A DNA stretch of 64,000 nucleotides from Candidatus Kaiserbacteria bacterium (GTDB lineage: Bacteria > Patescibacteriota > Minisyncoccia > Phycocordibacterales > UBA2100). Shown in pieces: positions 6,670 to 45,212 of the stretch. Location of the stretch: contig CAVYCR010000001.1 in NCBI GenBank assembly GCA_963767115.1, forward strand, positions 66,430-130,429, given 5' to 3'. Positions within the stretch are counted from its first letter, which is position 1; every line of letters begins with the position of its first letter. Both the position numbers and the translations under genes were made by a program. The notes under the pieces are model-generated. The model was not told the DNA's origin. It was given only the letters and a program-made list of their open reading frames with translations, and did no database searches.

Positions 6670-7536
6670 GTGATGGAGATTCTAGTGACAACTGAACACC
6701 GTTTCTCACTTGAAGAAGTAGAGTGCATATTACGCGATGCGATGGATAAAGCCGCCGATGATATCCATTCAGTTGAAGAAGGATTGGAGAACCCTGTTGT
6801 AAACATTCAATTCTTCGCTTCGTGTATGAAAGGCAAGCGCATGCTCGACGTTGGCTGCGGATGGGGCCGGTATGCGCAGTGTTTTGTAGATCTCGGCCTT
6901 ATATATACCGGTATTGATCTCTCACCTCGAATGATCGAGATCGCGCAGAGGTCCAACCTGGGGCTCATATTCAAGGAAATGAGTTTTCGTAAGATCGATT
7001 TCCCCGACGAGAGCTTTGAAGGCCTGTGGAGCTGTTGCAGTCTTGGTTTTGAACCGAAGCGCAACATGCAGGCGGTCTTACGGGAAATGTCTCGGATTCT
7101 TGTCCCCGGCGGCCTACTTTATATTGTTCTCCCGAATCATTGGGACAGTTTCGAGGATCCGCCAGATCCCTCGGCGACAGGTTTCAAACGGATACATTAT
7201 GCACGTTGGCTACCAGATGAGTTCTTGGATGTGATAAGGAAATCAGGCCTCGATTGCTCGACGCGTCTCTGGGTTGAACTTTTCTTCGGGCACCATCTCG
7301 ACATTGAACTTACCCTCGGCAAAGGCCTTCGTCGCCATTTTGAGAACGGACGCAAACGGGACACCAAGATGCTTGGCACGCTTCATTGCTTTTGCTTTTA
7401 CTGCTGGGTCTATGTTAAACACAATCTGCGTTGTCATGCATATAGCTTATATATAGCTATAATATATGTCAAGAATCTATTAGATTGGGAGAAACTGTTT
7501 CTCCCAATTAGTTCTCCTTCTGGAAATACGCGGTAA
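6670..7536 (+). CDS. Class I SAM-dependent methyltransferase; the 3' ~270 nt of the ORF are probably non-functional read-through
   Basis: Motif I LDVGCGWGRY, then LIYTGIDLSPRMI and GGLLYIVLPN. The methyltransferase fold appears complete by about 7270. The tail is low quality and lies antisense to ORF 7243..7437. Confidence 0.7.
   Translation: MMEILVTTEHRFSLEEVECILRDAMDKAADDIHSVEEGLENPVVNIQFFASCMKGKRMLDVGCGWGRYAQCFVDLGLIYTGIDLSPRMIEIAQRSNLGLIFKEMSFRKIDFPDESFEGLWSCCSLGFEPKRNMQAVLREMSRILVPGGLLYIVLPNHWDSFEDPPDPSATGFKRIHYARWLPDEFLDVIRKSGLDCSTRLWVELFFGHHLDIELTLGKGLRRHFENGRKRDTKMLGTLHCFCFYCWVYVKHNLRCHAYSLYIAIIYVKNLLDWEKLFLPISSPSGNTR
7243..7437 (-). CDS. Ribbon-helix-helix antitoxin-like protein (RelB/DinJ-like), with no cognate toxin gene adjacent
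   Basis: MTTQIVFNIDPAVKAKAMKRAKHLGVPFASVLKMATKAF resembles the N-terminal beta-strand plus two helices of RelB/DinJ antitoxins. A 7-bp/7-bp palindrome lies immediately upstream (7441-7461). Confidence 0.5.
   Translation of the reverse strand: MTTQIVFNIDPAVKAKAMKRAKHLGVPFASVLKMATKAFAEGKFNVEMVPEEKFNPETRRAIEA
7441..7461 (-). promoter_or_regulatory. AT-rich palindrome (tatagct-N7-agctata), candidate operator/promoter of the RHH ORF
   Basis: Read directly. It lies 4 nt upstream of the ATG at 7437 and contains TATA-type hexamers on both strands. Confidence 0.3.
7484..7508 (-). terminator. Hairpin (11-bp stem, 3-nt loop) abutting the stop codon of the 7508..8212 gene
   Basis: attgggagaaa ctg tttctcccaat. 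There is no clean U-tract, so the terminator function is tentative. Confidence 0.35.
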
Positions 7537-8212
7537 AGGTACGACGCTTGCCAGCTTTGCCGCGGATTATGTGGCGGTGGGATTTGTCGAATTTGTGAAG
7601 CGTGAGGTACGGCTCGAAGAATTCGCGTACTTTCTCCTCGCTCCAGACGTATTCGTACATGCCGAATTCTGGGTGTATGTAGGCGCCTTCTTCGTCGGCA
7701 GGATGATCGCGCAAGAGACGCTTGGTGTGCAAGTCTTCGTCAGCGAGGAATGACTTGAGTATGTACCAACCGCCGGTTTTCAGCACGCGCAATATCTCAT
7801 CGCGCAGGTGCTCGCGCTCTGCGGCTTTCAAGAAATGTGACGTCATAAGATCGAGCACCATCGTGACCGAGCCGTCCTTGACCTTGTCGAAGTCCCCATC
7901 GATTGAACGTGCCTCGTATTTGATCGGCAACTGCAGCGACGCATCGCGCGCCATCTTGATCGCCTCTTCGGAGACGTCGTAGCCCAGCCCGTGCATGCCG
8001 TAGGTTTTCGCCAAATAGACGAGATGCCGACCGTTCCCCGTCCCGAGATCAAGTACGGTTGCAAGGGGGTTCAGATATTCATGCCCCGTGCGGCGTTCAA
8101 TCCACTTGGTGGCTTTCACCAAGTCTTCCGAGGCTTCAGCCGAGAGCTTCAAGTGCCCGCTTGATTTGTATTCTTTATTCCAGAATCCGCGATTCGTGCT
8201 CATAGAGGGCAC
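7508..8212 (-). CDS. Class I SAM-dependent methyltransferase
   Basis: Motif I VLDLGTGNGRHLVYLA, then GLGYDVSEEAI and GGWYILKSF. It is convergent with the 6670..7536 ORF and overlaps it by 29 nt. Confidence 0.8.
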   Translation of the reverse strand: MPSMSTNRGFWNKEYKSSGHLKLSAEASEDLVKATKWIERRTGHEYLNPLATVLDLGTGNGRHLVYLAKTYGMHGLGYDVSEEAIKMARDASLQLPIKYEARSIDGDFDKVKDGSVTMVLDLMTSHFLKAAEREHLRDEILRVLKTGGWYILKSFLADEDLHTKRLLRDHPADEEGAYIHPEFGMYEYVWSEEKVREFFEPYLTLHKFDKSHRHIIRGKAGKRRTFTAYFQKEN

Positions 8213-8265: not shown

Positions 8266-11200
8266 TCACGGGAACGAGGTCGGATTGATGGTATTGAGAT
8301 ACGTATGGATCAGGCTGTAGAAGTTGGCTTGCTGCGTCGGGGTGAGGTGCCCGCCGGTGTAGACCGCAGCTATGCCATGAGCCAAGGTCGACTGGAAGTG
8401 GTTGCTGTTTAAGGTGTCGTCGAAGCCCTGGGTACCGGTCCCTATCGAAGATCCGTTCTTATATACCGTAAGAGTTGCTGACTGCGCGCCGTTGCGATCG
8501 ATCGTATACCAGCCTGCGCCGGTTGCTCCGCCGGTAATGGTGACCCCGTTGTTCGCCGCCGCATTCAAGCCGCCGTAGACATTCGTATCCCCGAAGTCCT
8601 GATTTCCGCTGAGGTTGAACTGCGCGTTGGTGGTAGAGGCGATCGCTCCCTGCAGGATGCTTCCGGTGCTCCAGCCGCCGATGCTCGATGCGGTCGAGGT
8701 CATCGCTACGGCGTTGGTAGCCGCCCAGCCGAGGTCTATATATCTCGCATCGAAGACTGAGTTATTGAAGCCCGTATCGGTCGTAAAGGTCGGAGCTCCG
8801 ACCAGCGTCGCGCTATACGTGCCATTGGTGAGGTTGGTGAGCGCCGTCGCGGAATTCTGGGTCGCGAAGACATAGAAGATGTCGAGCTGCGACCAGACGC
8901 CGTCGGAAACGAGGGCGCAGATGAGATTCTTGTATGCGTTCTGATGGGTGGTGTCGACCGTGACGCGCGCGAGGAAGGACGCCGATTGCGTGCAGCCGCC
9001 GCCGAACGAGAGCGTCGAGGTCGCAAACGTGTTGGAATTCGATGATTCATTGCCGCTGGTGTCGACTGCGGTCACGACATAGGAGTAGCTCGTCGAGGCA
9101 GTGAGGCCGGTATCGTCGTAATGTATCAGCGTCGTCGAGGCGACCTTCGAGCTGTTACGGTAGATGTTGTAGTACGCGACGGCGACATTGTCGGTCGAGG
9201 ATGCCCACGAGAGATTGATGTCGTTGAACGCCGGTGTGCCGGTAAGGCTCGACGGCGACGACGGCGGCGTCGTGTCAGGAGTCGCGGTGGTAAAGGTTGT
9301 ATCGCTCGAGGTCGCGGTATTGCCGAAGCTGTCTGCCGAGACGACCGCGTAGTGATAGAGCGTGGTCGGGGTGAGCCCGGTGAGCGAGATGGAGTGCGCG
9401 GTGAGGAGGGTCGCCGACGATGACGCGCTGCCGTAAGCGGTCGTCGTACCATAGACGACCTTCGAGCTCGCGGCAGTATTCGTGTTCCACGTAACTGTCG
9501 CGGTCGAGGTCGCGATAGAGCTCGCATTTATAGAAGTGATGACGGGCGGATTGTTCTGCACGGTGACCGTCTCGCTCGATGTCGCGTAGAGGCCGGAGTT
9601 GTCCTTGGCGACCGCATAGAGCGTATGTGTGCCGTCGGAGACTCCCGTCGAATTCCAGGTGACGCTGTACGGCGAGGAGGTATCGGCCGCGCCGATGTTC
9701 GAGCCGTCGACTTCGAACTGCACTTGAGAGATCGTCCCGATACTATCAGATGCTGAGGCCGACACGGTGACAGCCGATCCTGAGACCGTGGCACCGCTGG
9801 AAGGTGCCGTGAGTGAGACTGCCGGACCGGAGACCGTAGGATCGGCATGAGGAGCGCTGATGAGACTGGTGAGGTCGGTAACCGCCTTATTGACTACCTG
9901 CACGTTGGCATAACGGACCGCTTCGTTTACAGAAATATCTCCGGGATAGCCGCGATAGATGCCTACTTTCCAATATCCGGCACCGGCGTTCCCGCTTGCA
10001 TTGGAGTTCGGGAAGAGCGTGCCGGTAGTCCCTGAGACGTTGACCACCTGGGTGCCGTTGATCCATACCTTGAGGTACGCGGACGAATTCGTCGTCGTGC
10101 CGACCTCCTGCTCGATGAACATGTGGTACCACTGGCCTCGGGTAATAGCGCTCGGCGAGGTGTAGATAGCGGACGGATTGCTTGCTCCGTCTTCGTCGAT
10201 TTCCCAGTGGTCCGTAGGAGTGAGATCGAACGCGACCGATGCGGGCGGGTAGCCGCCGATACCGTAATGGTACTGGCCCATGGTGTTCCAGGAAGCGTTG
10301 GTGACGAGCGCTCCCGGCTCGACCATGACTGAGTAGCTGATCTGCACTACATCGGAGCCCGGCCACGCTGTATTTGCGGCTCCATCGAGCTCCGAGCGCT
10401 CGGCACCGCTCGTGTTGTCGATATCCCACGGATGCACCTCGAAGCGATACATGTCACCCAACGCACCGGTCGTCGTTGACACGTTCGTCGCGTGCCACAT
10501 CGAGTAGCTGTCCCACGCGCTTTCAGTGAAGTATTGGACTCCATTGACGGTCTCGGTCGTATTGGCATACGGGCCGACGCCGCCGAAGTCGCCGTAATAG
10601 ATCGCGTTCCAATCGAAGCCGTCGCTCGTCGTCTGCGCGGTCGACGGGACGGTGATACCCCAGTAGCTGTCTTCATTGGCTGAGATCGTATCGCGCGCGG
10701 TCTGTTTGGCCGGATAGAGGATGATCTCGGCGATATCGCCGTTGCCCATGTTCGAGCCGCCGGTCGCGTCCATGCCGACGTAGAGTCCGGTCGCGTTGGG
10801 ATACGTTACCGTCGCGCCGCCGCCGTTGGCGAAGATCGTCTGGCCGGCAGCATGGATGCTTTGGTCGGAGCTGTTCACATCGTACTGGTAGAGCTCGTTT
10901 CTGAATATCTGGCCGAAGTCTTCCGGATTAGAGGTGTTGTTCTGATATCCGGATCCGTTCACGTAGACCTGGTTCTGCAAGCTGTCCGCCTCGCCGGCGC
11001 TCCCGATGAGACCCCAATCGACATCCGTCCAATCGCTGGTGGACGTATGCGGATACCCGATGACCCAGAAGTCTCCGTTACTCTCCGTTGCCGAGTACTT
11101 GCCGATCTTCGCGACGACGAACGCATCGACAGCTGAGGTCTTGTATGCGGCATTGTCGGCTGCCTTCATGCCGCAGGTCGTGCACCACTGGGCAAGCGGC

Positions 11201-14200
11201 TGGCCGCTATTGGATCCGGAAGCGACGTACTGCGGCTGGTCGCCGTTGGTGCTCTGCGTCAGGTTGTTGCTGTTGCCGGATTGGTCATAGAAGGTGGTGA
11301 CATAGCAGGTGGTCGAAGCGCAGAAAGATGCTGCCGTCGTCGTATCAAAATTACCGTTGGCGAGGAAGCCGATGTTGTCAGTCGTGTTGTCGGAAGCGCG
11401 GCGCAGCTGTACCGCATTGCCAGCGTAGGAACTGCTCAGCTTACGGAAGGAATATGCAGCAGTGGCGCCCGTCCAGCTATCGAGCGGTGCGACATATCCC
11501 AAACTGCCGCCGGAGGATGCCGTCGTAAAGTTCTGGTCGGATGAGGTGGCGATATTCCCCTGACCATCAGCGGATACGACTGCAAAGTGGTAGAGCGTCG
11601 AAGTGGCGAGGCCCGCGAGCGATATCACATGCGAGGTGACAAGCGAAGTAGACGAGGACACTGAGCCGTACGAGGTGGTTGTGCCGTAGACGACCTTTGA
11701 TGATGCGGGGTTGTTGGTCGTCCATGTGATGCTGGCATTCGTCTGGCTGGGGCTTCCGGAAGATATGGAGGAAATGACCGGGGCGCTGTTCTCGACATTG
11801 ACTGTGATTGAGGAGGTCGCGTAATTGCCTGAGGTGTCGACAGCAACCGCGGAAAGAGTATGCGAGCCGTCAGAGACGCCGGTGGAATTCCAGGTCGTCG
11901 AGTACGGAGAACTACTATCGGCCGCACCAATATTGGTGCCGTCGACCTTGAATTGCACACTCGCGACCGCCACGTTGTCTGACGATGTTGCCGAGAGGGT
12001 GACCGAAGAACCGGAGACACTCGCACCGCTTGACGGAGCAGTTAGGGACACGGTGGGTGGGATGGTATCGCCGCCGGCAGTGCTCGGCCATGTAGGCTGT
12101 GAACTCACGAGCCCCGAGTACTTGCCCGCGGTGGTGCTGATCATCTCGTTGCCGACCTGATACACAATGTCGGATGGATTGGCAACGCCCTTGTAGGGAA
12201 TCCACGGGACATCTCCAGTGTAAACACCGTTTTTGAGCGAAAGCGTCGATGGGGAGGAACTGAATATATTGCCGCTTTGATTGCATTGTTCGGTAAGCGT
12301 GCCGCCAACTGGACCGAGGTAGATCTGCTCGGAGCTTGAACTGCCGTTGTAATAGAGTTCATACTCGATGGCGTAGGTAGTACTCGTCGAGATATCGATA
12401 ACCGAGCCGCAGTCAGTACCATTAATGAAGGCCCGCATGGTCGGTTGACCGGCGCTGGTGCGGTCCATGCAGTCGATCCCGCCGCCATAATAGAGCTGGC
12501 CGACAATGCACCATTCGCCACCCTGCGAGACCATGTCGGGAATACTTTTGAATTTGAACTCGTAAAAGATACTCAGGTGCGTCCCTGGTGAATATGATGT
12601 CGCATCGAGTATTTCGCTTCTTGGGTGCTGCGTAATGCCGACATCGGAATCACCTCCGTTCACCACGAATTGCCACAGAGTCGGACAGTTCGTCCCAGCG
12701 GTACAGCCTGAAGTGTTGAGATTGGTCGCATAGGCTTCGCTCGGTCCTTCGGAGTGGATATAGCCGCCCGTTTGCGGCTGCCAGGTAATACCATTAGCAT
12801 CGGTCACTTGATAGTCGCCCAAAGCGGACGCGAAGCTGCCAGCAGATCCGCCCTCACCACCCGGATACGGCGGCAATAATTCCGGGCGCAGCGTATATCC
12901 GTCGGTCGTGCTCTGGTTCGTCGCAACTGTCGCGATCGGCGTAATGCCGTACTGCGAGTCGAGCCAGCCGTCGACGGTCGTACGATTGGCAGCCGTCTGG
13001 TTGACCATCGCCATTTGATGGAAGCAATTGTTGGACGTATTTTCAGAACCATTCGTGTTGCTGAAGAGCGTCGTTCCGACATTGGTCGAATAGGTGACGT
13101 TTGAACCGGACTGCGCAGCCGAAAGTTGCGTGGTGTCGTAGATAAGCTCTTCCGTGTAAGAGTCGACATCCCATACGGCCCAGCGTCCGCGCATGTATTG
13201 ATCGAGGTAACCGACTGTGCCTCCTGCCACGCCGGCGTTTTTCACCATGACCGGATCGCTTGCGGTACCGTCGATGTCTGCAGGCGAGAGCGAGAAGGCC
13301 CAGTACGCGCTTGAATCGAAGGTGTTGCTCGCGGGCCCCGCGACGATCCACGGACCACCGATGACGGAATTGGTGAGCTCGAACGTATCGCCGGTCTCAT
13401 TGAGTTGATTATTGAAGTTCTGGAGCAAGGAAAGGCTCGTACTTCCGCCAGTTGCCGTACCAGCGTATTGCTCCCACCACAGTGCGCTTGGATGGGTCAC
13501 GTCTTCCACACCGGGCTGTCCCGGGTTCCAGACACCGCCGCTCGAAGTCGAGAATCCCTGGAAGACCGAAGCGACGCCACTCTCTGCAATGTTCGTAATG
13601 TTGTGATTGCTCGTAGAGACGTTGCCGGTAATAGTGAAATACGGAAGATTTGGCTGCCAGCCGTTCCAGTCGAGCGTGCCCGGGTATGCGACGGCGAAGA
13701 GTTCAACCTTAGAGGTCGACTGGCTTGCGGAATAGGCATTGCTCATCGTGGAGTTTGGCTGCGCACAGACTTCCAAGAGACCATCGGCTCCTTCGGCGAT
13801 CTGAGGCATTTTTGCGAGCGTGTTCTGATTCCAGTCGTCCTCATGTCCTTCTACGGCACCAACGGTATCGTAGAGGGTCTTCACGTAACAGTACGTTCCC
13901 GAGCAGAATGAATTGAATTGGCTCACGCTTGCCGCGTGGGTGCTCGGGTCGAAGCCAATCGTCGTCGTCGCGTTGTCACTCGTGCGCTCGATGACAGCGA
14001 AGTTACCATTGTACGAGGACGCTGGTGAATACGCGCTCCAGCCGTCGGTCCATCCTTCGGACGGGTACTGATCAATTATGCCATTGTAGGTAACTCCCCC
14101 ACTCGCAGCCGTCGTAAACGTCTGATCAGACGACGTCGCCGTCGTCCCCGTCGCATCTGCAGAAACGACCGCGAAGTGGTACGTGGTATTGGCGGTGAGT

Positions 14201-17200
14201 CCGGTAAGTGAAATCGAATGTGAAGTCAGCAGCGTTGCTGAAGATGAGGCAGAACCATAGCTTGTCGTGGTGCCATAGACGACCTGTGAGTTGGCACTCT
14301 TGTCGGTCGTCCAAGTGATCGTGGCAGCGGTCGTCGTCGGCGTGCCCGAAGAGATTGACGAGATGACCGGAGCTGTGTCTGTCGCCGTGGTAGTCGTAAA
14401 CGTCTGGTCGCTCGACGTCGAGGTATTGCCCAGACTGTCAGCCGAAACGACCGCGAAGTGATACGTGGTGCCTGACGAGAGGCTGGTGAGCGAGATCGAG
14501 TGGCTCGTCACAAGTACCGCACTCGAGGAGGCGGAGCCATATGAAGACGTGAGTCCGTAGACGACCTTGGAGTTTGACGAGGTGTTGGTCGTCCAGGTGA
14601 TGGTCGAGGTGGCGGTCGCGGTTGATGAGGCGATCGACGAGATGACCGGCCCGGCGTTGGAGACGGTGAATGATATGACGGTCGAGGTCGCGTAGTTGTT
14701 GGAGGTGTCGCGGGCCACGGCAAAGGCACTGTGAGAACCGCTCGAGGTGGCCGTGGTATTGAACGTCGTACCGTACGGAGCACTCGTGTCCTCGCTTCCC
14801 TGCTTCATACCATCGACGTAGAAGGTGACGCCAGCAACGGCGACGTTGTCGGAAGCGGTGGCGGCAAGGGTCATCGTGCTTGACGTGGCTTCGCTCGATA
14901 CTGGTGAAGTCATCGTAACCGATGGAGGCGTCACGTCAGGTGTCGCGGTCGTCGTAAAGGTCTGGTCAGACGACGTCGCCGTATTCCCCTGCCCGTCAGA
15001 GGAGACCACGGCAAAGTGATAGACCGTTGAAGCAGTGAGTCCGGTAAGCGAGATTGAGTGACTGGTTGTAAATACTGCTGACGAAGAAGCAGAACCATAC
15101 GAAGATGTCGTGCCATACACCACCTTGGAAGTGGCATTCTCATCAGTCGTCCACGTGACGGTCGCGGTGGTCTGCGCAGTCGATGAAGCGATTGCAGAGA
15201 GCACCGGCGGCGTGTTGTCGTCGGTCACGGTGATCGCGGTGGAGGTGGCGTAGTTGTTGGAGGTGTCGCGGGCAACAGCAATGATCGTCTTCGATCCGCT
15301 TGAGGTTGCTGTCGAGTCCCAGGTGATGGAGTACGGTGATGAGGTGTCCTCGCTTCCCTGCTTGATACCGTTGACGTAGAAGGTGACGCCGGCAACGGCG
15401 ACGTTGTCAGAGGCGTTGGCTGAGATGGTGACGGAAGTTCCTGAGACGGTGGCGCCGTTTGAAGGTGCGGAGAGTGCAACGACAGGCGGAGTGATGTCAG
15501 CAGTCGTGAAGGTCTGGTCTGAGGAGGTGGAGACATTGCCAACGCTGTCGGTCGAGACGACCGCGTAGTGGTAGGTGGTGGCGGAGGTGAGGCTGGTGAG
15601 TGATATGGAGTGACTGGTAACGAATGATGCGCTTGATGAGGCGGAGCCGTAGCTTGCTGTCGTGCCGTACACCACCTTGGAGGTCGCGTTCTCGTTGGTG
15701 GTCCAAGTGATGGTTGCGCTGGTGCCTGCGGGAGTTCCTGCTGAGATGGATGAATTGACCGGGGGCGTGTTGTCGACGGTAACGCTCTCGCTCGTCGTTG
15801 CGTAGTTGCCCGAGGTGTCTTCAGCCACCGCGTAGAGCGTGTGCGTGCCGTCAGAGACACCGGTTGAATTCCACGTCATGGCATATGGTGAGGAGGTATC
15901 AGCGGCACCGATGTTCGTGCCGTCAACTTTGAATTGGACTTGAGCAACCGCGACGTTGTCAGAGGCGTTCGCGGTGAGCGAGACGGCGGAGGTGCCGACG
16001 GTAGCGCCTGATGCCGGGGCGGTGAGCGTAACGGAAGGTGGGGTGGTGTCCGGAGTCGAGCTTGAGGTAAAGGTCTGATCACTGGAGACGGAGAGCTTGC
16101 CCGCACCATTGGTGGAGCGGACGCGGTAGTGGTAGGTAGTGGCTGACGTGAGACCGGTCAAGACGACCGAGTGGCTCGTGACGAGCGAGGAATTGATCGT
16201 GGTGGTGGAGCCATATGCGCTCGTGAGTCCGTAGTTCACTTGTGAGTCAGCGGTTTGGTTGGTGGTCCAGTTGATCGTGGCGCTCGAGAGACCGGGCGTG
16301 CCTGAGGAGATCGAGGAGAGGACCGGGGCTGCGTTCTCGACGGTGACGGTGATTGACGAGGTTGCGTAGTTGCCTGAAGAATCCTGCGCGAGTGCTACGA
16401 TCGTGTGCGTACCGTCAGAAACGCCGGTTGAATCCCAGGTGATGGAGTACGGGGATGAAGTGTCTGCCGCACCGATGTTGTTGCCATCAACTCTGAATTG
16501 GACTGACGCAACCGCAACATTGTCAGTAGCAGCTGCCGTGAGTGTAACGGCTGATCCTGAGACTGCGGCACCTGAAGACGGTGCGGTGAGTGATACCGAT
16601 GGTGGCGTGAGATCAGCGGTTGTCGTTGCAACTGCAGGGATGGAAGCGCTCGAGACATTGCTCGAGGTATCGACGGCGGTGAGGGTGTAGGTGTAAGTGG
16701 TGTTGGGAGTAAGTCCGGTGTCGTTGAACGTGATGCCGGTCGGAGATGCGATGAGGACGCTGTTGCGGAAGAGCTGGTAGTTCTGCACGGCGACGTTGTC
16801 GGTTGCAGCAGTCCACGAGAGATCGATCTCGGTTGAGGAGGCGACGGATGCGATGAGGCCGGTTGGGGTCGAGGGTGGTGTCGTGTCGGTAGATGGACTG
16901 CCTCCACCACCCCCTCCTCCGCCACCTCCACCTCCACCTCCACCTCCGCCACTGTAGACCGGAGCGGAGACGGTCGTGAAGATCAAATCAGTTGATGTTG
17001 CCGCGTCACCTTGTATGTCATGCGACACGAGTTGGAAGTGGTAGGTTGTTCCTGCAATGAGGTTGCTGAGCGCAAGTGTGTGAGTGGTTGCAATGATGCT
17101 TGAGGTGGCGACGGATCCGTAACTCGTCGTGAGGCCGTAGTTGATGGTTGAATCTGATGATACGGGAGTAGTCCAAGTGATCGTGGCGCTGGTGGTGGTG

Positions 17201-17919
17201 GTCGAGACGTTGACGCTCGATATGATGAAGGCTGACGAGGGCGTGGAGACGGGGCCAGCGGGAGTGGAAGGCGTTGATGATCCTCCTGTTTCTTGGGTTT
17301 GTTGCGCGAGACTATTGAGGAGTGCACGCGTCTTGTTACCAACTGTGCCGTATCCGGTAGTAGTGGGTGTACCGGAAGAGACGATGCCGTGGGCTTTCTG
17401 AAGCGCTTTGACTGCTGCTTCGGTCAGGGGTCCGTAGAAGCCGGTTGGTGCTGATGCTGCGAGGAGTCCCTGGGCTTTGAGGATCTCTTGAGCGCAGGTG
17501 ACGTTCGCTCCGGTTGATCCGGGAGCGATGTTTGCAGTGATGGTGCAGAAAGTGGCGGAGGTGGCTGGTGTTGGGATTGGAGTCGTCTTGTGCGCAGCGA
17601 TGAGGGCCTTGAGTTCGGCTTCGAGGGTGGTGATGAGGGCTTCGAGAGTGGTGATTTCGGTTGCTTCGGAGGAAGTGGGGACGGTCGTGGTCGTAATGAC
17701 ACTAGTATTTATTGGTGAGGAGGTTACTGGGGTAGTTGCACTTACTCCCGGAAGAGAGATGAGCTTTTCAAGCGACGGGAGTGGAGGGAGTGCTACCGGT
17801 GTTACCGAGGTGAGGTTGAGTGCGGTTATCGCTACAGGGTAGAGAGCGAGCGCACCAAACACCGCTAATCCAAAGACACGCAACAATGAGGTCTTCGTGA
17901 GACCCTTCCCGTACTTCAC
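8266..17919 (-). CDS. Giant secreted/cell-surface multidomain protein (3217 aa): N-terminal anchor, PG-binding-like segment, Ig-like and FN3-like repeats, two polysaccharide-lyase/concanavalin-like regions, C-terminal lectin-like domain
   Basis: Single uninterrupted ORF. N-terminal hydrophobic segment LLRVFGLAVFGALALYPVAITAL. PG_binding-like CAQEILKAQGLL...GPLTEAAVKALQKAHG. Eight modules of the type ATITWTT-x-S(K/Q)VVYG-TSYGS...TTYH(F/Y)AVVS, and six modules of the type VSGS-VT...ATDNVAVA-VQFKVDG-NIGAADTSSPYS-TW-STGVSDG-HT. Two canonical FN3 domains (IDLSWTAATDNVAVQNYQLFRN and INLSWASSTDNVAVAYYNIYRN). Two regions with HPRSEIL/GAERSEL signatures as in concanavalin-fold polysaccharide lyases. 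Confidence 0.9.
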   Translation of the reverse strand: MKYGKGLTKTSLLRVFGLAVFGALALYPVAITALNLTSVTPVALPPLPSLEKLISLPGVSATTPVTSSPINTSVITTTTVPTSSEATEITTLEALITTLEAELKALIAAHKTTPIPTPATSATFCTITANIAPGSTGANVTCAQEILKAQGLLAASAPTGFYGPLTEAAVKALQKAHGIVSSGTPTTTGYGTVGNKTRALLNSLAQQTQETGGSSTPSTPAGPVSTPSSAFIISSVNVSTTTTSATITWTTPVSSDSTINYGLTTSYGSVATSSIIATTHTLALSNLIAGTTYHFQLVSHDIQGDAATSTDLIFTTVSAPVYSGGGGGGGGGGGGGGGGGSPSTDTTPPSTPTGLIASVASSTEIDLSWTAATDNVAVQNYQLFRNSVLIASPTGITFNDTGLTPNTTYTYTLTAVDTSSNVSSASIPAVATTTADLTPPSVSLTAPSSGAAVSGSAVTLTAAATDNVAVASVQFRVDGNNIGAADTSSPYSITWDSTGVSDGTHTIVALAQDSSGNYATSSITVTVENAAPVLSSISSGTPGLSSATINWTTNQTADSQVNYGLTSAYGSTTTINSSLVTSHSVVLTGLTSATTYHYRVRSTNGAGKLSVSSDQTFTSSSTPDTTPPSVTLTAPASGATVGTSAVSLTANASDNVAVAQVQFKVDGTNIGAADTSSPYAMTWNSTGVSDGTHTLYAVAEDTSGNYATTSESVTVDNTPPVNSSISAGTPAGTSATITWTTNENATSKVVYGTTASYGSASSSASFVTSHSISLTSLTSATTYHYAVVSTDSVGNVSTSSDQTFTTADITPPVVALSAPSNGATVSGTSVTISANASDNVAVAGVTFYVNGIKQGSEDTSSPYSITWDSTATSSGSKTIIAVARDTSNNYATSTAITVTDDNTPPVLSAIASSTAQTTATVTWTTDENATSKVVYGTTSSYGSASSSAVFTTSHSISLTGLTASTVYHFAVVSSDGQGNTATSSDQTFTTTATPDVTPPSVTMTSPVSSEATSSTMTLAATASDNVAVAGVTFYVDGMKQGSEDTSAPYGTTFNTTATSSGSHSAFAVARDTSNNYATSTVISFTVSNAGPVISSIASSTATATSTITWTTNTSSNSKVVYGLTSSYGSASSSAVLVTSHSISLTSLSSGTTYHFAVVSADSLGNTSTSSDQTFTTTTATDTAPVISSISSGTPTTTAATITWTTDKSANSQVVYGTTTSYGSASSSATLLTSHSISLTGLTANTTYHFAVVSADATGTTATSSDQTFTTAASGGVTYNGIIDQYPSEGWTDGWSAYSPASSYNGNFAVIERTSDNATTTIGFDPSTHAASVSQFNSFCSGTYCYVKTLYDTVGAVEGHEDDWNQNTLAKMPQIAEGADGLLEVCAQPNSTMSNAYSASQSTSKVELFAVAYPGTLDWNGWQPNLPYFTITGNVSTSNHNITNIAESGVASVFQGFSTSSGGVWNPGQPGVEDVTHPSALWWEQYAGTATGGSTSLSLLQNFNNQLNETGDTFELTNSVIGGPWIVAGPASNTFDSSAYWAFSLSPADIDGTASDPVMVKNAGVAGGTVGYLDQYMRGRWAVWDVDSYTEELIYDTTQLSAAQSGSNVTYSTNVGTTLFSNTNGSENTSNNCFHQMAMVNQTAANRTTVDGWLDSQYGITPIATVATNQSTTDGYTLRPELLPPYPGGEGGSAGSFASALGDYQVTDANGITWQPQTGGYIHSEGPSEAYATNLNTSGCTAGTNCPTLWQFVVNGGDSDVGITQHPRSEILDATSYSPGTHLSIFYEFKFKSIPDMVSQGGEWCIVGQLYYGGGIDCMDRTSAGQPTMRAFINGTDCGSVIDISTSTTYAIEYELYYNGSSSSEQIYLGPVGGTLTEQCNQSGNIFSSSPSTLSLKNGVYTGDVPWIPYKGVANPSDIVYQVGNEMISTTAGKYSGLVSSQPTWPSTAGGDTIPPTVSLTAPSSGASVSGSSVTLSATSSDNVAVASVQFKVDGTNIGAADSSSPYSTTWNSTGVSDGSHTLSAVAVDTSGNYATSSITVNVENSAPVISSISSGSPSQTNASITWTTNNPASSKVVYGTTTSYGSVSSSTSLVTSHVISLAGLATSTLYHFAVVSADGQGNIATSSDQNFTTASSGGSLGYVAPLDSWTGATAAYSFRKLSSSYAGNAVQLRRASDNTTDNIGFLANGNFDTTTAASFCASTTCYVTTFYDQSGNSNNLTQSTNGDQPQYVASGSNSGQPLAQWCTTCGMKAADNAAYKTSAVDAFVVAKIGKYSATESNGDFWVIGYPHTSTSDWTDVDWGLIGSAGEADSLQNQVYVNGSGYQNNTSNPEDFGQIFRNELYQYDVNSSDQSIHAAGQTIFANGGGATVTYPNATGLYVGMDATGGSNMGNGDIAEIILYPAKQTARDTISANEDSYWGITVPSTAQTTSDGFDWNAIYYGDFGGVGPYANTTETVNGVQYFTESAWDSYSMWHATNVSTTTGALGDMYRFEVHPWDIDNTSGAERSELDGAANTAWPGSDVVQISYSVMVEPGALVTNASWNTMGQYHYGIGGYPPASVAFDLTPTDHWEIDEDGASNPSAIYTSPSAITRGQWYHMFIEQEVGTTTNSSAYLKVWINGTQVVNVSGTTGTLFPNSNASGNAGAGYWKVGIYRGYPGDISVNEAVRYANVQVVNKAVTDLTSLISAPHADPTVSGPAVSLTAPSSGATVSGSAVTVSASASDSIGTISQVQFEVDGSNIGAADTSSPYSVTWNSTGVSDGTHTLYAVAKDNSGLYATSSETVTVQNNPPVITSINASSIATSTATVTWNTNTAASSKVVYGTTTAYGSASSSATLLTAHSISLTGLTPTTLYHYAVVSADSFGNTATSSDTTFTTATPDTTPPSSPSSLTGTPAFNDINLSWASSTDNVAVAYYNIYRNSSKVASTTLIHYDDTGLTASTSYSYVVTAVDTSGNESSNSNTFATSTLSFGGGCTQSASFLARVTVDTTHQNAYKNLICALVSDGVWSQLDIFYVFATQNSATALTNLTNGTYSATLVGAPTFTTDTGFNNSVFDARYIDLGWAATNAVAMTSTASSIGGWSTGSILQGAIASTTNAQFNLSGNQDFGDTNVYGGLNAAANNGVTITGGATGAGWYTIDRNGAQSATLTVYKNGSSIGTGTQGFDDTLNSNHFQSTLAHGIAAVYTGGHLTPTQQANFYSLIHTYLNTINPTSFP
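16900..16950 (-). repeat. Simple-sequence tract (GGN)x17 encoding 17 consecutive glycines inside the giant gene
   Basis: Minus strand reads ggc gga ggt gga ggt gga ggt gga ggt ggc gga gga ggg ggt ggt gga ggc, between ...APVYS and SPSTDTT.... Confidence 0.95.
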
Positions 17920-18001: not shown

Positions 18002-20461
18002 CTATTGGATGGTGAAGTTAACTGTCTGCATATCACTCGAGCCATCGGAGAAAGTAGCAATAGCAGTGAGGACTGATGGCCCGCGCGTCGAGGGGAGCAA
18101 TGATAACGAATAGGGGGGTTCTGATACAGTGCCGATCGGGAGCCCGTTGAGCGCGTAACTTACAGCCGTCACCGACTTTTCTCCACCATATGAAGCACTG
18201 ATATGGAGACTGTTGCTTCCGGAGACGATTCCACCCGCTTGCGGAGAAGTCACGACGAAGCCTTGCTCCGGAGCGATAGTAGTGGGAGCTCCTGTATCTG
18301 CACTGGTAGATGTACCCGATATATCACCTTGCGATTGCGCCCAGATCTGTACCGGATATTCCCAATAGGCGAACTGTGGATCGCTTGCGGGGTTCGTTGG
18401 CGGGCCGGCAAGCGGATTGCCGCGTTGCGTCCAATAGAGGATTTCGTGAACACCCTCACTCGGATCAGTGTTCCAGTTGCCTTGTAAGACCTGGGGAAGT
18501 GATGACTCGTTCGGATTCGGCGCAGGCGTAGGGAAGGTATCAGAAGTGGACGAATATTTTTGAAGTGCGTACGCCATGATCTTATGCCAGGTAGGTACCA
18601 CGATAAGTGCTGCGATGTTGTTGGTCATCGGCGTGTTGTCGTTGTTGCCGACCCACTCACCCACCGCAATTGACGGGCTGTAGCCAATGACCCATGCGTC
18701 ACGCGAATCGTTGGTTGTGCCGGTCTTGTCGGCGACATCATAACCAGAGAACGTAAGGGGGCCGTTTGGCGCGAATTCAGGCTGGCGATTGGTATCAGTA
18801 GAGAGCACGTTACTGATGAGACGTGCGATTTGCGGGTCGAGCACACGTGTGGACTGGTCTTGATAACTCTCGAGAACAGTACCGTTTTGGTCTTCGACTT
18901 CAAGGACACCAGTGGGCGGATTCCTCACACCATCGTTGGCAAAGACACTGTAGGCGCTCGTCATTTCGAGCAGGTTGACCTCTCCGCCGCCGAGCACGAG
19001 CGAGAGACCGTAGCGCGAGGGGTCGCCAAGCGTCGTGATACCGAGAGATTGTGCGGTGTCGATCGACTGCTGGATGCCGGCGAGATACAGGAGTTTTACC
19101 GCCGGGACGTTTTCTGAATTGCCGAGCGCCTGTTGCAAACTCATCGGCCCGAGGAAGTTGCCACTGTAATTTACTGGCGCATAGCACGGGGGCGTGTTGT
19201 TGGTGGTGTCTGAAGGCGCGCACGAGGTTGAAAATTGCGTCTGTAGATCGAAAAGTACTGTTTGCGGCGTATACCCTTCCTCGAAGGCTGTGGCATATAC
19301 GAAAGGCTTAAACGAGGACCCCGGCTGACGCAGCGCGAGTGTCGTATTGACCTGACCATCGATCGTGTTGTTGAAATAGTCAGCCGAACCCACCATCGCA
19401 AGGATCTGGCCAGTCTTCGGGTCGACCGCGACAACACCCGTATTGGAGGCGTTAAATTTACTTTGCAGGCCCGGTGCGTCTTGCGAAATAATATTCTGGG
19501 TCTGTTGTTCGAGATCATAATCAAGTGTGGTGATCACCTTGAGGCCTCCATTTTCTACTTCGTCGACGCCATATTTCTCTTCGAGATATTCGCGGATATA
19601 GAAGACAAACCATGGCGCCAAAATACCATTGTCGCTCTCGGGCTTGAATTGCACCTGCTCGTTGAGGGCTTGTGTGTATTCGTCTTTGGTAATGTAGCCG
19701 AGTGTGAGCATCTTCGAGAGCACGAGGTTTTTGCGCGCATCGAGTGCTGCGCGGTTGTCGCCATACGGCGAGTAATACGTCGGCGCCTGCGGGAGCGCTG
19801 CGATGTATGCCGCTTGCGCGAGATCGACATCACTCGCGTCCACACCGAAGAAATATTGCGATGCGGCTTGGACGCCGTAGATCGTACCGCCGTAGGGCGA
19901 ATCATTGAGATATGAATTGAGGATTTGATCCTTGCTATACGTCTTGGTGAGGCGTATCGCCAATATAATCTCTTCGATTTTGCGTGAGATCGTTTTATCG
20001 TCGGTGAGAAGTGAATTCTTCACCACTTGCTGTGTGATGGTCGAACCGCCTTGCGCATAGCCGCGCGCTGTGACGTCAGCCCAAGCAGCACGCAAGATCG
20101 AGAGCGGCCGGACGCCAGCGTTTTGGTAGAAGGTGTCATCTTCGATGGAGATAGTCGCATCTTGGATATACGGGCTGATCTGCGACAACGGAACTGACGT
20201 TCTCTCTTCCTCGCCATGCACGTCATAGAGCACAATGTTGCCCGTGCGATCGTAGATCTTGGTCGATTGCGCTACTTGGCGGTTCTCGAAGTTTTCGATC
20301 GAGGGGATCGGCACGAGCGACGCCCAGACAATGATGCCGCCCACAATGAAAAGAAAAAGTGCGACGATTCCGAGAATACCGAATTCAAGCCAGTACGGCA
20401 TCTTGAACCGTTTGAAAATACGGCGGCGTTCTCGGCGCGGTGTCGAAGAACTCTGTGACAT
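18002..20461 (-). CDS. Class A penicillin-binding protein (glycosyltransferase GT51 + transpeptidase), PBP1A family, with a C-terminal Ig-like extension
   Basis: N-terminal TM segment. GT51 motifs SIEDDTFYQNAGV and GGSTITQQVVKN. Transpeptidase motifs SSFKP (SxxK) and KTGTT. Confidence 0.92.
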   Translation of the reverse strand: MSQSSSTPRRERRRIFKRFKMPYWLEFGILGIVALFLFIVGGIIVWASLVPIPSIENFENRQVAQSTKIYDRTGNIVLYDVHGEEERTSVPLSQISPYIQDATISIEDDTFYQNAGVRPLSILRAAWADVTARGYAQGGSTITQQVVKNSLLTDDKTISRKIEEIILAIRLTKTYSKDQILNSYLNDSPYGGTIYGVQAASQYFFGVDASDVDLAQAAYIAALPQAPTYYSPYGDNRAALDARKNLVLSKMLTLGYITKDEYTQALNEQVQFKPESDNGILAPWFVFYIREYLEEKYGVDEVENGGLKVITTLDYDLEQQTQNIISQDAPGLQSKFNASNTGVVAVDPKTGQILAMVGSADYFNNTIDGQVNTTLALRQPGSSFKPFVYATAFEEGYTPQTVLFDLQTQFSTSCAPSDTTNNTPPCYAPVNYSGNFLGPMSLQQALGNSENVPAVKLLYLAGIQQSIDTAQSLGITTLGDPSRYGLSLVLGGGEVNLLEMTSAYSVFANDGVRNPPTGVLEVEDQNGTVLESYQDQSTRVLDPQIARLISNVLSTDTNRQPEFAPNGPLTFSGYDVADKTGTTNDSRDAWVIGYSPSIAVGEWVGNNDNTPMTNNIAALIVVPTWHKIMAYALQKYSSTSDTFPTPAPNPNESSLPQVLQGNWNTDPSEGVHEILYWTQRGNPLAGPPTNPASDPQFAYWEYPVQIWAQSQGDISGTSTSADTGAPTTIAPEQGFVVTSPQAGGIVSGSNSLHISASYGGEKSVTAVSYALNGLPIGTVSEPPYSLSLLPSTRGPSVLTAIATFSDGSSDMQTVNFTIQ

Positions 20462-28989: not shown

Positions 28990-30078
28990 TTAGAGACCGC
29001 TGTTGAACAAGTTGCCCGAATCAGGCTTCGCGCTCTCCGTCGAGCCGCTCCCGGAACTGCCCGAACCTACCGAGCCAAAGGTGAAATTCCACGAGCTCTT
29101 CGCGTCGAGGAAGATGTTGGTCGCATGGGTGACCTCAAGCGCGAGCTGTGCTTGCCCCGAAGAGTTTGCCGCATTGATCGTGATCTCACTCGGATCCTGT
29201 GCGCTCGCCTTGACTGGTGAGTCGTTGATAGTCCACGCGTAGGTGAGATTGGAATCGTTCGGGCTCTGAGCTTGTGCGAAATACGGCACCGCGGCGAAGG
29301 TAGTCTGGCTTCCAGGGATCGACGCACTCGATGCGAAACCGTTGTAGTACGTGATACCAAAAAGCGGATGGTCTTGATACAGCACGATCTGCGGGTTTGC
29401 TGCAGGTACTAAAAGCGATGCACTGCCGGTATAATCGCCGTCTTGCGACTCGGTGTCGATTTCTACCACCGTGCTCCCATCGAGCGGAGGCGCCGGCAGA
29501 AGCACAGACGATCTGCCGAGACCCGAGAGATTTCCCAAGACCACGTCATTTTCTTTCCAGGTGTAGTTGATTTGCGAAGATGGAACGAGCGTACCGTCAG
29601 CTCGCTTGAAATACACGATTGCTTGCACGCGGATAGGGGTGCCAGCTGAGGGCAGTGCACGACCCTTATAAAAAGGCGGTACATACGTGTTGCTGTCCAT
29701 AAGGAGGTCGACCTCTGTCGGTGAGATGGTCGATTGTGCTTGTACCTGCGTGCCATCAAGCGCCGTGACAGAGGCGACAATATTCATGTGCGATCCAAGC
29801 GGCCCTGCCGTCACATTGGTGCTTGTCATACCGGTGCCTTGTGCTATCGTCGTGCCGTTTGATCGCCAAACGACCGTACTGTCTGAAAGGTCGACCGACG
29901 TGTCCTGTAGTGTAAGAGAAACAGTATCGCCGGGCGCGGGGTTTTGCGGTGAGGCCGTGATTGATGCATTTTCATTCTGCCCGGAGAGATTGAGTATAGA
30001 AAAGTTGGTCTGCGCGAAAGCAGTCGAAACACTCATGAGCGCCATGAGAAGAGCGAGAGTACTCGCCAACGATTTCAT
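28990..30078 (-). CDS. Secreted hypothetical protein (362 aa) of the T4SS-like cluster
   Basis: Signal peptide MKSLASTLALLMALMSVSTAFAQ. Beta-rich, Ig-like composition with a Gly/Ser tail. Confidence 0.7.
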   Translation of the reverse strand: MKSLASTLALLMALMSVSTAFAQTNFSILNLSGQNENASITASPQNPAPGDTVSLTLQDTSVDLSDSTVVWRSNGTTIAQGTGMTSTNVTAGPLGSHMNIVASVTALDGTQVQAQSTISPTEVDLLMDSNTYVPPFYKGRALPSAGTPIRVQAIVYFKRADGTLVPSSQINYTWKENDVVLGNLSGLGRSSVLLPAPPLDGSTVVEIDTESQDGDYTGSASLLVPAANPQIVLYQDHPLFGITYYNGFASSASIPGSQTTFAAVPYFAQAQSPNDSNLTYAWTINDSPVKASAQDPSEITINAANSSGQAQLALEVTHATNIFLDAKSSWNFTFGSVGSGSSGSGSTESAKPDSGNLFNSGL

Positions 30079-39594: not shown

Positions 39595-39679
39595 AAGCTT
39601 CTAGCTTCTAGGGGCTAGCTTCTAGGGAAAACAAGACAAAATGCATTTGCTAGAAGCTAGTAGCTAGCCACTAGAAGCT
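39595..39679. repeat. AGCT-rich palindromic spacer motif (copy 1)
   Basis: aagcttctagcttctaggggctagcttctaggg, then a 21-nt A-rich spacer containing aaaatgc, then gctagaagctagtagctagccactagaagct. The right arm overlaps the stop codon of the 39671..40591 gene. Confidence 0.7.
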
Positions 39680-44896: not shown

Positions 44897-45212
44897 CGCG
44901 CCCCAATTTGACAAAACCCCTATCCACTCGCCAAGTCTGAGAAGTATTGCCCCACAAGGTCGATGAGGGTAGAGTGAACCCTAACGACGGCATACCCGAA
45001 ATCAGACGCTCGGTGCTTCCTGAGAAAGCAAGCAATAGAGCCATGAAATCCAGATGCCCTGAAAGCCCGTCGTCAAAAATTGGCTTTAAATCTCGATAAA
45101 ATACGAAAAGCGGCTAGCGCCTCTTTTTTGTGTTGTTGGGACTAAAATGCCGATTAAATGGCTTATTTTAAGTAAAAAACACGATTCTCGTCCGAGCTCC
45201 GGCTCACGCGGG

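Follow-up and report, generated by a model that had tools for sequence, protein, structure and literature searches.

A stalked giant surface protein of Patescibacteria as a candidate multi-headed depolymerase/adhesin for acidic polysaccharides

A single gene occupying 15% of the 64-kb stretch of DNA analysed here (hereafter, the window) encodes a 3,217-amino-acid protein that we are somewhat more inclined to accept than to doubt as a cell-anchored, stalked, multi-headed depolymerase/adhesin for acidic polysaccharides, made by a Patescibacteria (CPR) bacterium. The 9.65-kb ORF that the first-pass annotation had described as single and intact was recovered as one uninterrupted, GTG-started frame of 3,217 codons on the minus strand (Table 1). 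The protein is rich in Ser and Thr (30% together) and contains 216 Asp and Glu residues versus 74 Lys and Arg residues. A large protein collection holds no entry for the exact protein, and an NCBIfam scan returned only a spurious partial match to CbhB via the FN3/Ig region (139.8 bits versus a cut-off of 1950). Elsewhere in the window there is no further copy of the cassette or tip domains described below. We see in the protein a well-built member of a kind already recognised, not a new kind.

Table 1. Features of the giant gene and its upstream neighbour, with positions in the window (PAPN, Pur_ac_phosph_N-type FN3-like module)
Feature	Position	Strand	Basis or remark
Whole gene	8266..17919	-	3,217-aa surface protein, GTG start; uninterrupted ORF
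N-terminal hydrophobic segment, aa 12-34	17818..17886	-	Kyte-Doolittle maximum of whole protein
Thr/Ser/Pro-rich linker with short helical heptad-like stretch (LEALITTLEAELKALIAA)	17554..17817	-	By inspection
PG_binding_1 peptidoglycan-binding domain, aa 123-200	17320..17553	-	Pfam
FN3-like (Pur_ac_phosph_N type) module 1	16960..17235	-	Pfam
Gly17 hinge, coded by (CCTCCA)n tandem repeat	16900..16950	-	DNA repeat scan
Canonical fn3 domain 1, aa 347-436	16612..16881	-	Pfam
Stalk array Big7-PAPN-Big7-PAPN-Big7-PAPN-Big7-PAPN-PAPN, aa 440-1271	14107..16602	-	Pfam
Cassette 1 domain a, aa 1272-1661: GH54-catalytic-like beta-sandwich	12937..14106	-	PF09206, E 5.7e-8
Cassette 1 domain b, aa 1662-1948: lyase-like jelly roll	12076..12936	-	hhalign to 2b
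Spacer: Big7 no. 5 + PAPN no. 7	11521..12057	-	Pfam
Cassette 2 domain a, aa 2134-2423: GH54-catalytic-like beta-sandwich	10651..11520	-	PF09206, E 5.8e-17
Cassette 2 domain b, aa 2424-2692: probable PF14099 polysaccharide-lyase jelly roll	9844..10650	-	Pfam, motifs, Foldseek
Big7 no. 6 + PAPN no. 8 + fn3 no. 2	9022..9843	-	Pfam
C-terminal ConA-like (lectin-like) domain, aa 2967-3217	8269..9021	-	AF2 model, Foldseek
Class A PBP (transglycosylase + transpeptidase), own C-terminal Big_7	18002..20461	-	Upstream neighbour, 82-bp gap

The sole strongly hydrophobic 19-residue stretch of the protein lies at about aa 12-34 and is either a signal-anchor or a signal peptide. The heptad-like element of the linker behind it is also found, by inspection, in the relative L092. 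The PG_binding_1 match (E 4.5e-9, 36.8 bits versus a cut-off of 23, aa 136-186) was obtained with the N-terminus scanned alone. Pfam matched all of the PG-binding-like, Ig-like and FN3-like calls made earlier from the translation and reproduced their counts exactly, with six copies of Big_7 (E 5e-90, six stretches), eight Pur_ac_phosph_N-type FN3-like modules (E 6e-37, eight stretches) and two canonical fn3 domains. Together, the Gly17 hinge and the 16 Ig/FN3-type beads constitute a long spacer. A search of the C-terminus for an LPXTG sorting signal or a hydrophobic tail found neither (the protein ends ...NTINPTSFP), and the Pfam scan found no SLH domain in the protein. One would expect the hydrophobic segment and PG_binding_1 to tether the protein to the envelope of its producer, although PG_binding_1 could instead bind the wall of a host.

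Similarity among the repeats at the DNA level, from which recombination and copy-number variation had been anticipated, does exist but is modest: the copies are 61-75% identical to a reference copy, and the longest exact match that they share is 26 bp. The only true tandem DNA repeat in the gene is the (CCTCCA)n tract that encodes the Gly17 run. A recombination-prone repeat array was therefore rejected, the identity being too low for strong concern, while variation in module number is indeed seen among relatives.

Three large non-repeat regions had been noted between and beyond the modules. The C-terminal one stands as a single domain (aa 2967-3217), but the two internal ones proved to be two-domain cassettes (aa 1272-1948 and 2134-2692), each consisting of a GH54-catalytic-like beta-sandwich of ~300-390 aa, overlooked in the first reading, and behind it a lyase-like jelly roll of the PF14099 type. 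When these regions were checked for lyase or lectin folds by profile search, such folds turned up. The cassettes are paralogous, as hhalign pairs the two a domains at 99.6% (E 6e-24) and the two b domains at 98.7% (E 2e-16, 229 columns), with negative a-versus-b controls. Domain 1a carries an insertion of ~100 aa compared with 2a.

Domain 2b scores above the gathering threshold of PF14099 (Polysacc_lyase; 41.6 versus 29.9 bits, E 1.7e-10, positions 6-200 of 210). The AlphaFold (AF2) prediction for cassette 2, with a pLDDT of 76 (medium confidence), shows the jelly-roll fold and matches in Foldseek the lyases of families PL7 (5zqi, 1uai and 2zac), PL13 (heparinase I, 3ilr), PL20 (2zzj), PL36 (6kcw) and PL14 (5gmt). 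E-values for these matches range from 2e-7 to 5e-6, and TM scores normalised to the target are 0.53-0.61 for jelly-roll-only targets and 0.39-0.44 for the larger heparinase I. These results uphold for 2b the concanavalin-fold lyase reading that had been drawn from the HPRSEIL (aa 1765) and GAERSEL (aa 2505) signatures, both of which are present. The motif residues of 2b, arranged as R-x-E / Q-x-H / K-x-G-x-Y, are R2508, E2510, Q2549, H2551, K2651 and Y2655 (R375, E377, Q416, H418, K518 and Y522 in cassette numbering). All six are invariant in 17 of 17 cassette-2 homologues with 39-53% identity, which would be hard to explain without catalysis. In PL7 enzymes, where His/Tyr are catalytic and Arg/Gln act as neutralisers, the motifs are (R/E)(S/T/N)EL, QIH and YFKAGVYNQ (PMC9410210), and the R-S-E-L, Q-x-H and Y-W-K-x-G-x-Y of 2b parallel RSEL, QIH and YFKAGVY. 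Unlike in PL7, PL13 and PL20, however, the b domain invariably comes joined to a GH54-like sandwich on its N-terminal side, and it has no sequence-level match to a solved lyase: searches of the PDB, even with a 17-sequence cassette-2 profile, reached the GH54 N-terminal stretch only. Taken together, one Pfam profile, the conserved motifs and a medium-confidence predicted fold make a lyase the probable identity of 2b.

Domain 1b has no direct match to PF14099 or any other Pfam family, and its lyase-like character, also proposed earlier, is sustained by its remote homology to 2b. It retains the catalytic constellation only in part. R1767-S-E1769, the Gln of G-Q-L-Y-Y and the Lys and Tyr of K-N-G-V-Y at aa 1896 are kept, whereas Tyr replaces the family His, giving Q-x-Y rather than Q-x-H. 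In the cassette-1 family, R-x-E, Q and K-x-G-x-Y are present in all full-length members, a count from which the truncated P0050 and P0052 were left out, and distant members retain the His.

The AF2 model of the C-terminal tip (pLDDT 83.8, pTM 0.87) is a ConA-like jelly roll, in agreement with the lectin-like domain suggested at the outset. Its best PDB match in Foldseek is the carbohydrate-binding domain 4 of AbnA (E 8e-7), and others include clostridial neurotoxin lectin-like HCN domains, the Pan3 cyanophage tailspike and the lectin module of the pilin PilC; query-normalised TM scores for these matches are about 0.45-0.55. There is no Pfam match to the tip, and a PDB sequence search returned noise only (E of at least 0.08). 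The family to which it belongs is very large, with about 8,900 representative clusters, and lacked a Pfam match in the scans made. We regard the tip as a predicted ConA-like, lectin-type domain with putative sugar binding. Wall-attached Gram-positive polysaccharidases such as the GH43 arabinanase AbnA (PDB 5ho0/5hon) similarly combine catalytic modules, Ig/FN3 spacers and a ConA-like carbohydrate-binding domain, but the protein described here has an N-terminal TM segment and PG_binding_1 as its anchor in place of SLH or LPXTG, a predicted lyase rather than hydrolase chemistry, and far more spacer modules.

Elsewhere, the cassettes and the tip domain are found as secreted proteins in their own right, with signal-peptide-like N-termini, and the fused GH54-like and PF14099 cassette is rare, 5.8 billion clusters containing only tens of such sequences. 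The surroundings of stand-alone cassette homologues consist of housekeeping or miscellaneous genes, with no polysaccharide-utilisation loci around them, and context therefore gives no substrate. Single-cassette relatives were found in other metagenomes (L092/L090, a 1,915-aa ORF, and L086/P0127, 1,879 aa). On these independent contigs the N-terminal order of TM segment, coil, PG_binding, Gly run (at the equivalent position in L092 and L086) and fn3 is kept, and L092 has the identical order of Big7, PAPN and fn3 ahead of its C-terminal domain. Identity to L092 is 53-87% for the stalk modules, 32-40% for the cassette and 40% for the tip; judging from these sequences, the binding and cutting heads appear to diverge much faster than the stalk.

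This pattern of conserved stalk and variable heads is shared with phage tail-fibre and tailspike modules, as are the domains themselves. In the L088 locus, a T7-like tail module, a tip-family gene overlaps the start of a cassette-1-type gene by 4 nt; T7-like tail-tubular and internal-virion genes lie nearby, where phrog_376 and phrog_394 mark tail proteins and phrog_418 an internal virion protein. PHROG families of virion or unknown function are matched by 2a (phrog_10356, 'virion structural protein', E 6e-15) and by the tip (phrog_18498/26223). Searches with tblastn matched annotated minor tail and virion structural proteins of Gordonia, Arthrobacter and cyanophage origin, as well as Sinorhizobium phages, and fold matches in BFVD reach E 1e-15. 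In contrast to these tail modules, the giant protein is a chromosomal, membrane- and peptidoglycan-anchored bacterial protein encoded near oriC, and its ConA-like fold differs from the trimeric beta-helix of a classical tailspike.

The gene sits among polA, ruvB, ruvC, the PBP gene, dnaN, dnaA and yidC, which are syntenic in four other Patescibacteria genomes. The window holds housekeeping genes only, with no sign of a prophage, and the giant gene lies outside any phage or prophage. Consensus scans for promoters and terminators at both ends of the gene found nothing above shuffle expectation, and since neither appeared in the gap upstream, the PBP and giant genes may be co-transcribed. The PBP is 74-58% identical to proteins of Paceibacterota/Patescibacteria MAGs. 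Four syntenic relatives examined (58-74% PBP identity) have no large ORF beside the PBP, and tblastn with the giant protein found no match in any fetched PBP-relative locus.

Some cassette homologues are labelled 'alpha-L-arabinofuranosidase' by JGI/GenBank, and the a domains might accordingly be active GH54-type enzymes that release arabinofuranose. Both exceed the PF09206 (ArabFuran-catal) cut-off of 25 bits (62.2 for 2a and 32.7 for 1a), and in Foldseek the five best PDB matches of the cassette 2 model are all from GH54 (E 7e-11 to 8e-10). The first ~75 residues are about 40-45% identical to Aspergillus AbfB (PDB 1wd3/2d43), sharing its SD..T, FC..T.C and YDQSGN motifs along with the overall beta-sandwich fold. 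However, the profile is covered only at positions 11-93 (2a) and 24-79 (1a) of 315, and the match is confined to positions ~8-93 in all ten bacterial and phage homologues scanned, so that a partial match is common to the whole family. The alignment of 2a with 1wd3 (E 3e-12) spans residues 15-91 only, that of cassette 2 with the PDB ends at residue ~91 even when the 17-sequence profile is used, and a PDB sequence search with cassette 1, like that with the tip, gave noise only (PBP5, KcsA and scaffoldin across the two; E of at least 0.08). The rest of the a domain lacks detectable sequence similarity to AbfB, and the Pfam scan found no CBM42/AbfB domain in the protein. The GH54 enzyme AkAbfB, described by Miyanaga in 2004, reportedly uses Glu221 as its catalytic nucleophile and Asp297 as its acid/base. 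In a global hhalign comparison with an approximate AkAbfB sequence, confidence is near zero past residue ~90, and the 2a Asp that lands on Asp297 in this low-confidence alignment is replaced in the paralogue 1a. Arabinofuranosidase activity thus seems very improbable to us, and the name given to the homologues is probably misleading. Domains 1a and 2a share no conserved acidic pair, a point in favour of a purely adhesive protein, in which the lyase-like and GH54-like domains would be catalytically dead ConA-fold lectins of a multivalent glycan-binding adhesin or fibril. The lost His of 1b and its failure to match PF14099, the lectin-type fold of the tip, and the many ConA-like phage proteins that are binders all fit such a protein. 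We nevertheless hold it to be rather improbable, given the six invariant residues of 2b and the retention of R, E, Q, K and Y among full-length cassette-1 family members.

With the conserved catalytic motifs of its lyase-like domains, the protein might alternatively be a nutrient-scavenging, cell-bound exo-enzyme that feeds the cell by breaking down acidic polysaccharides free in its surroundings (EPS of plants, algae or microbes in soil or peat) and plays no part in recognising a partner. CPR MAGs commonly contain PL and GH genes, to which carbon cycling has been ascribed (PMC10031880); homologues that stand alone are found in unremarkable bacterial settings; and relatives carry peat- or bog-type metagenome identifiers. 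Against this, the giant gene is flanked by PBP, ruvC, methyltransferase and dnaA/dnaN genes, with no transporter or uronate-catabolism genes among its flanks; homologous modules in a phage tail gene cluster point to cell-surface glycan targets; and faster divergence of heads than of stalk is expected of specificity determinants. On balance, we consider scavenging unlikely. The possibility that the gene is an assembly artefact, with a mis-joined or mis-counted repeat array, arises from its repeated modules, its probable MAG source, the fact that its nearest relatives by PBP are all MAGs, and the absence of the exact protein from the collection searched. Yet the repeats are too divergent to confuse assemblers, the frame is intact throughout, and independent contigs share the N-terminal and C-terminal (Big7, PAPN, fn3, tip) module order; we give an artefact very little credence.

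In the depolymerase/adhesin reading that we prefer, the N-terminal segment and PG_binding_1 would anchor the protein, and the Ig/FN3 beads and Gly17 hinge would space out its heads. Judging from its motifs and modelled fold, cassette 2, and possibly cassette 1, would cleave a uronic-acid-containing polysaccharide by beta-elimination, with Arg/Gln neutralising charge and His/Tyr serving as base and acid, as in PL7, PL13 and PL20 enzymes. The GH54-like and C-terminal ConA-like domains would bind glycan and set specificity. At a further remove, the substrate may be capsule or EPS on a host or neighbouring cell, which would make the protein a cell-borne counterpart of a phage tailspike. To our knowledge, Patescibacteria are generally without obvious uronate catabolism, a scarcity that agrees with barrier-breaking but proves nothing.

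A role as a contact factor for a surface-attached lifestyle, which the first-pass annotation had put forward, would agree with the assignment to Patescibacteria and with published work on these organisms. Very large surface-targeted FN3/ConA proteins of Patescibacteria such as Absconditicoccaceae have been proposed as host-interaction factors (PMC13059738), and parasitic Patescibacteria (Yanofskyibacteriaceae/Minisyncoccaceae) express PG-binding and Ig-fold proteins at high levels (PMC10936435). The present protein resembles such large surface proteins in size, N-terminal TM/signal segment, FN3/Ig/ConA-like content and PG-binding domain, but these two reports describe domain classes and not a GH54-like/lyase-like cassette. 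The literature on CPR families that combine such modules yielded general statements only, and paired lyase-like cassettes with a phage-shared tip were not found described.

The ways in which ultra-small Patescibacteria locate, latch onto and penetrate their hosts are poorly understood, and hardly any of these bacteria have been cultured; the gene is a concrete and dissectable candidate for these processes. It offers candidate catalytic residues (H2551 and Y2655), three putative specificity modules that can be separated, and a natural comparison between variants with one cassette and with two, and it draws attention to two poorly covered domain families, the fused cassette and the ConA-like tip, that are common to bacteria and phage tails. 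More tentatively, and with doubts that outweigh our confidence, we suggest that an episymbiont has mounted phage-type recognition hardware (two capsule-depolymerase cassettes and a receptor-binding tip) on a peptidoglycan-anchored stalk, with which it may cut through and dock onto the acidic capsule of a specific host, swapped or duplicated heads setting its host range. If true, CPR host specificity would have a molecular determinant that can be tested directly.

The reading frame of the giant gene is intact, as the first-pass annotation had described, and its length of 3,217 codons makes a chance origin not credible. The encoded protein is rich in Ser and Thr (30% together) and strongly acidic (216 Asp and Glu residues versus 74 Lys and Arg), and the transmembrane (TM) segment is its sole strongly hydrophobic stretch. 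Every repeat class named earlier was recovered by Pfam with identical counts, comprising six copies of the Ig domain Big_7 (E 5e-90), eight FN3-like modules of the Pur_ac_phosph_N type (E 6e-37) and two canonical fn3 domains, in addition to PG_binding_1 (E 4.5e-9). Coordinates and domain orders are collected in the table.

Table. Features of the giant protein, its locus and its relatives (window positions unless marked otherwise)
Feature	Position	Content
Giant ORF	17919 to 8266 (minus strand)	3,217 codons, GTG start
TM segment	aa 12-34	followed by a linker that contains a short helical stretch
PG_binding_1	aa 123-200	
FN3-like module	aa 229-320	
Gly17 run	aa 324-340	
fn3	aa 347-436	
Stalk before cassette 1	aa 440-1271	(Big_7, FN3-like) x4 plus one additional FN3-like
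Cassette 1	aa 1272-1948	
Stalk between cassettes	aa 1955-2133	Big_7, FN3-like
Cassette 2	aa 2134-2692	
Stalk after cassette 2	aa 2693-2966	Big_7, FN3-like, fn3
C-terminal domain (tip)	aa 2967-3217; 8269-9021	
(CCTCCA)n tract	16900-16950	codes for the 17-Gly run
Neighbourhood of giant gene		polA, ruvB, two methyltransferases, giant gene, class A PBP, ruvC, dnaN, dnaA, yidC
Methyltransferase	7508-8212	
Class A penicillin-binding protein (PBP)	18002-20461 (minus strand)	
Region with inverted ruvC-PBP block	5573-26530	
Peptidoglycan endopeptidase-type protein	45147-46448	LysM x2, M23 peptidase
ORFs (306-923 aa) with no Pfam match at E <= 1e-5	28990-30078, 31649-32572, 34317-37088, 37031-38764, 39671-40591, 50511-51863	six ORFs
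Phage-type gene pair	L088:1492-4406 (and L089)	tip-family gene, cassette-1-type gene
Single-cassette relative L092/L090	1,915-aa ORF	TM, coil, PG_binding, Gly run, fn3, FN3-like, Big_7, FN3-like, cassette 1, Big_7, FN3-like, fn3, tip
Single-cassette relative L086/P0127	1,879-aa protein	PG_binding x2, fn3, cassette 2, fn3, tip

The two internal cassettes are paralogous and consist of two domains each, wherein profile-profile comparison matched the GH54-like ‘a’ domains to one another (1a with 2a, 99.6%, E 6e-24) and likewise the lyase-like ‘b’ domains (1b with 2b, 98.7%, E 2e-16); a-versus-b controls in the same comparison gave no match. Domain 2b reaches 41.6 bits with PF14099 Polysacc_lyase, higher than the Pfam gathering threshold of 29.9, which supports the lyase-like part of the earlier domain interpretation, as the Pfam and fold results do for its PG-binding, Ig, FN3 and lectin-like parts. 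The AlphaFold prediction for cassette 2 (pLDDT 76), which used an alignment of 17 homologues, matches jelly-roll lyases of families PL7, PL13 (heparinase I), PL20, PL36 and PL14. Six residues are invariant across this alignment, namely R375, E377, Q416, H418, K518 and Y522 in cassette numbering (R2508, E2510, Q2549, H2551, K2651 and Y2655 of the giant protein), and they reproduce the PL7 motif triad (R/E)(S/T/N)EL, QIH and YFKAGVYNQ. The catalytic residues of PL7 enzymes are His and Tyr, with the substrate carboxylate neutralised by Arg and Gln (PMC9410210).

The account of the non-repeat regions in the first-pass annotation overlooked the ‘a’ domains, which could be read as true GH54 arabinofuranosidases given that both match the GH54 catalytic domain PF09206 above threshold and that their best fold matches are GH54 structures. 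However, the sequence match ends after approximately 90 residues, both for the window protein and for each of the ten bacterial and phage homologues scanned, and neither alignment attempts nor comparison of 1a with 2a placed the GH54 catalytic acids. For these reasons we read the ‘a’ domain as a GH54-like ConA-type sandwich whose function is probably binding, and the name ‘alpha-L-arabinofuranosidase’ borne by homologues of this type is, judging from their sequences, probably an over-annotation. Related proteins with a PF09206-type domain include P0017-P0042 and phage records (Gordonia phage Lucky10 gp27 and Aphanizomenon phage CL131), and the phage proteins are named variously as ‘alpha-L-arabinofuranosidase’ or as minor tail or virion structural proteins. 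A second alternative holds that the giant protein is purely adhesive and its enzymes dead. In domain 1b the motif reads G-Q-L-Y-Y, with Tyr1809 in the position of the His, and in remoter members of the 1b family it reads G-Q-[IV]-H-Y; domain 1b retains R-S-E, Q and K-x-G-x-Y; the PL7-type residues of 2b are all present.

That the ORF might be an assembly artefact was suggested by its repeats, whose similarity in DNA was overstated in the first-pass annotation. Module copies share only 61-75% identity with the reference copy, and no exact repeat within the gene is longer than 26 bp, so that mis-assembly or frequent homologous recombination is unlikely and the concern over recombination carries little weight. 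The (CCTCCA)n tract is the sole genuine tandem DNA repeat and a possible slippage site; because L092 (13 Gly) and L086, both relatives, have glycine runs in the corresponding place, it looks like a conserved flexible hinge.

The C-terminal domain found no match in sequence searches of Pfam and PDB. Its model (pLDDT 84, pTM 0.87) is a ConA-like jelly roll. It resembles carbohydrate-binding domain 4 of AbnA and the HCN domains of clostridial neurotoxins, which are lectin-like, as well as a tailspike from a cyanopodophage and the lectin module of the pilin PilC, and thus the earlier description of this domain as lectin-like is supported at the level of the predicted fold. An exhaustive profile search placed it in a very large family of 8,886 representative clusters (E <= 1e-3; P0056-P0204 are members), many of them stand-alone proteins of ~270-290 aa and some multi-copy, with up to eight domains in one protein; none of nine representatives scanned carried a domain over this region in the copy of Pfam searched.

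The cassette families are rare (42 hits for cassette 2, 10 for cassette 1). Stand-alone cassette 2 proteins (44-52% identity, 98% coverage) are ~550-620 aa long and have N-termini that resemble signal peptides, and those of cassette 1 are ~680-710 aa (34-62% identity); gene neighbourhoods of such homologues in ordinary bacterial contigs offered no functional clue. On contigs L088 and L089, the gene for a 293-aa tip-family protein shares 4 nt with the start of the gene for a 678-aa protein of cassette-1 type (P0055). Both belong to a co-directional run that in L088 includes T7-like tail-tubular phrog_376 (E 2e-134) and phrog_394 as well as the internal virion protein phrog_418, which identify a T7-like phage structural module. 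The two overlapping genes are probably tail fibre or depolymerase genes of a phage. Searches of PHROG, tblastn against phages and fold searches of BFVD concur that cassette and tip modules occur commonly in the virion or tail proteins of phages.

An anchored protein of this kind, but with a single cassette, is encoded on two further contigs, the cassette being of type 1 in L092/L090 and type 2 in L086/P0127, and thus the window protein unites both types on a longer stalk; the context of L086 looks CPR-like, with a split transketolase. Between the window protein and L092, stalk modules are 53-87% identical, the cassette 32-40% and the tip 40%; such a combination of conserved shaft and variable head is typical of receptor-binding proteins.

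The locus is a chromosomal, origin-proximal region, and its PBP is 74-58% identical to counterparts in Paceibacterota/Patescibacteria MAGs. Four related Patescibacteria genomes share the order polA(-), ruvB(+), ruvC(+), PBP(+), dnaN(-), dnaA(-), yidC(+). None carries the giant gene at the syntenic site, and it is therefore lineage-specific at this site. Relative to these genomes the ruvC-PBP block of the window is inverted, with the giant gene and a methyltransferase adjoining it, a lineage-specific rearrangement or insertion beside replication-origin genes. The PBP, which itself ends in a C-terminal Big_7 (E 1.7e-5), lies directly upstream of the giant gene. A consensus scan matched no promoter or terminator in the 82-bp gap between them, and co-transcription is thus possible. 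Elsewhere in the window, the LysM/M23 protein adds to the wall-active secreted proteins of this organism, whose genome is small, and two of the ORFs with no Pfam match, of 923 and 577 aa, run on the same strand with a 58-nt overlap.

Given the observed architecture, homologies, conserved motifs, co-occurrence in phage and differences in module number between relatives, we propose that the TM segment and PG_binding_1 would hold the protein at the producer’s envelope, and that a flexible Ig/FN3 stalk would project the lectin-like tip together with both lyase cassettes. Cassette 2 would cut a uronic-acid polymer by beta-elimination, and the ‘a’ domains and tip would supply binding and specificity. 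More speculatively, the target may be the capsule of a host or neighbour, as with phage tailspikes; an alternative is that the protein scavenges environmental polysaccharide (cf. PMC10031880). A capsule target fits literature in which FN3/ConA surface proteins of very large size are regarded as candidates for host interaction in Patescibacteria (PMC13059738) and PG-binding and Ig-fold proteins are highlighted in parasitic members (PMC10936435). CPR bacteria are already known to have PL genes and large surface proteins of modular build, and the giant protein is thus a well-resolved new example and not a surprise. It is a useful experimental handle because its cassette and tip are shared with phages and because variants with one and two cassettes occur naturally.
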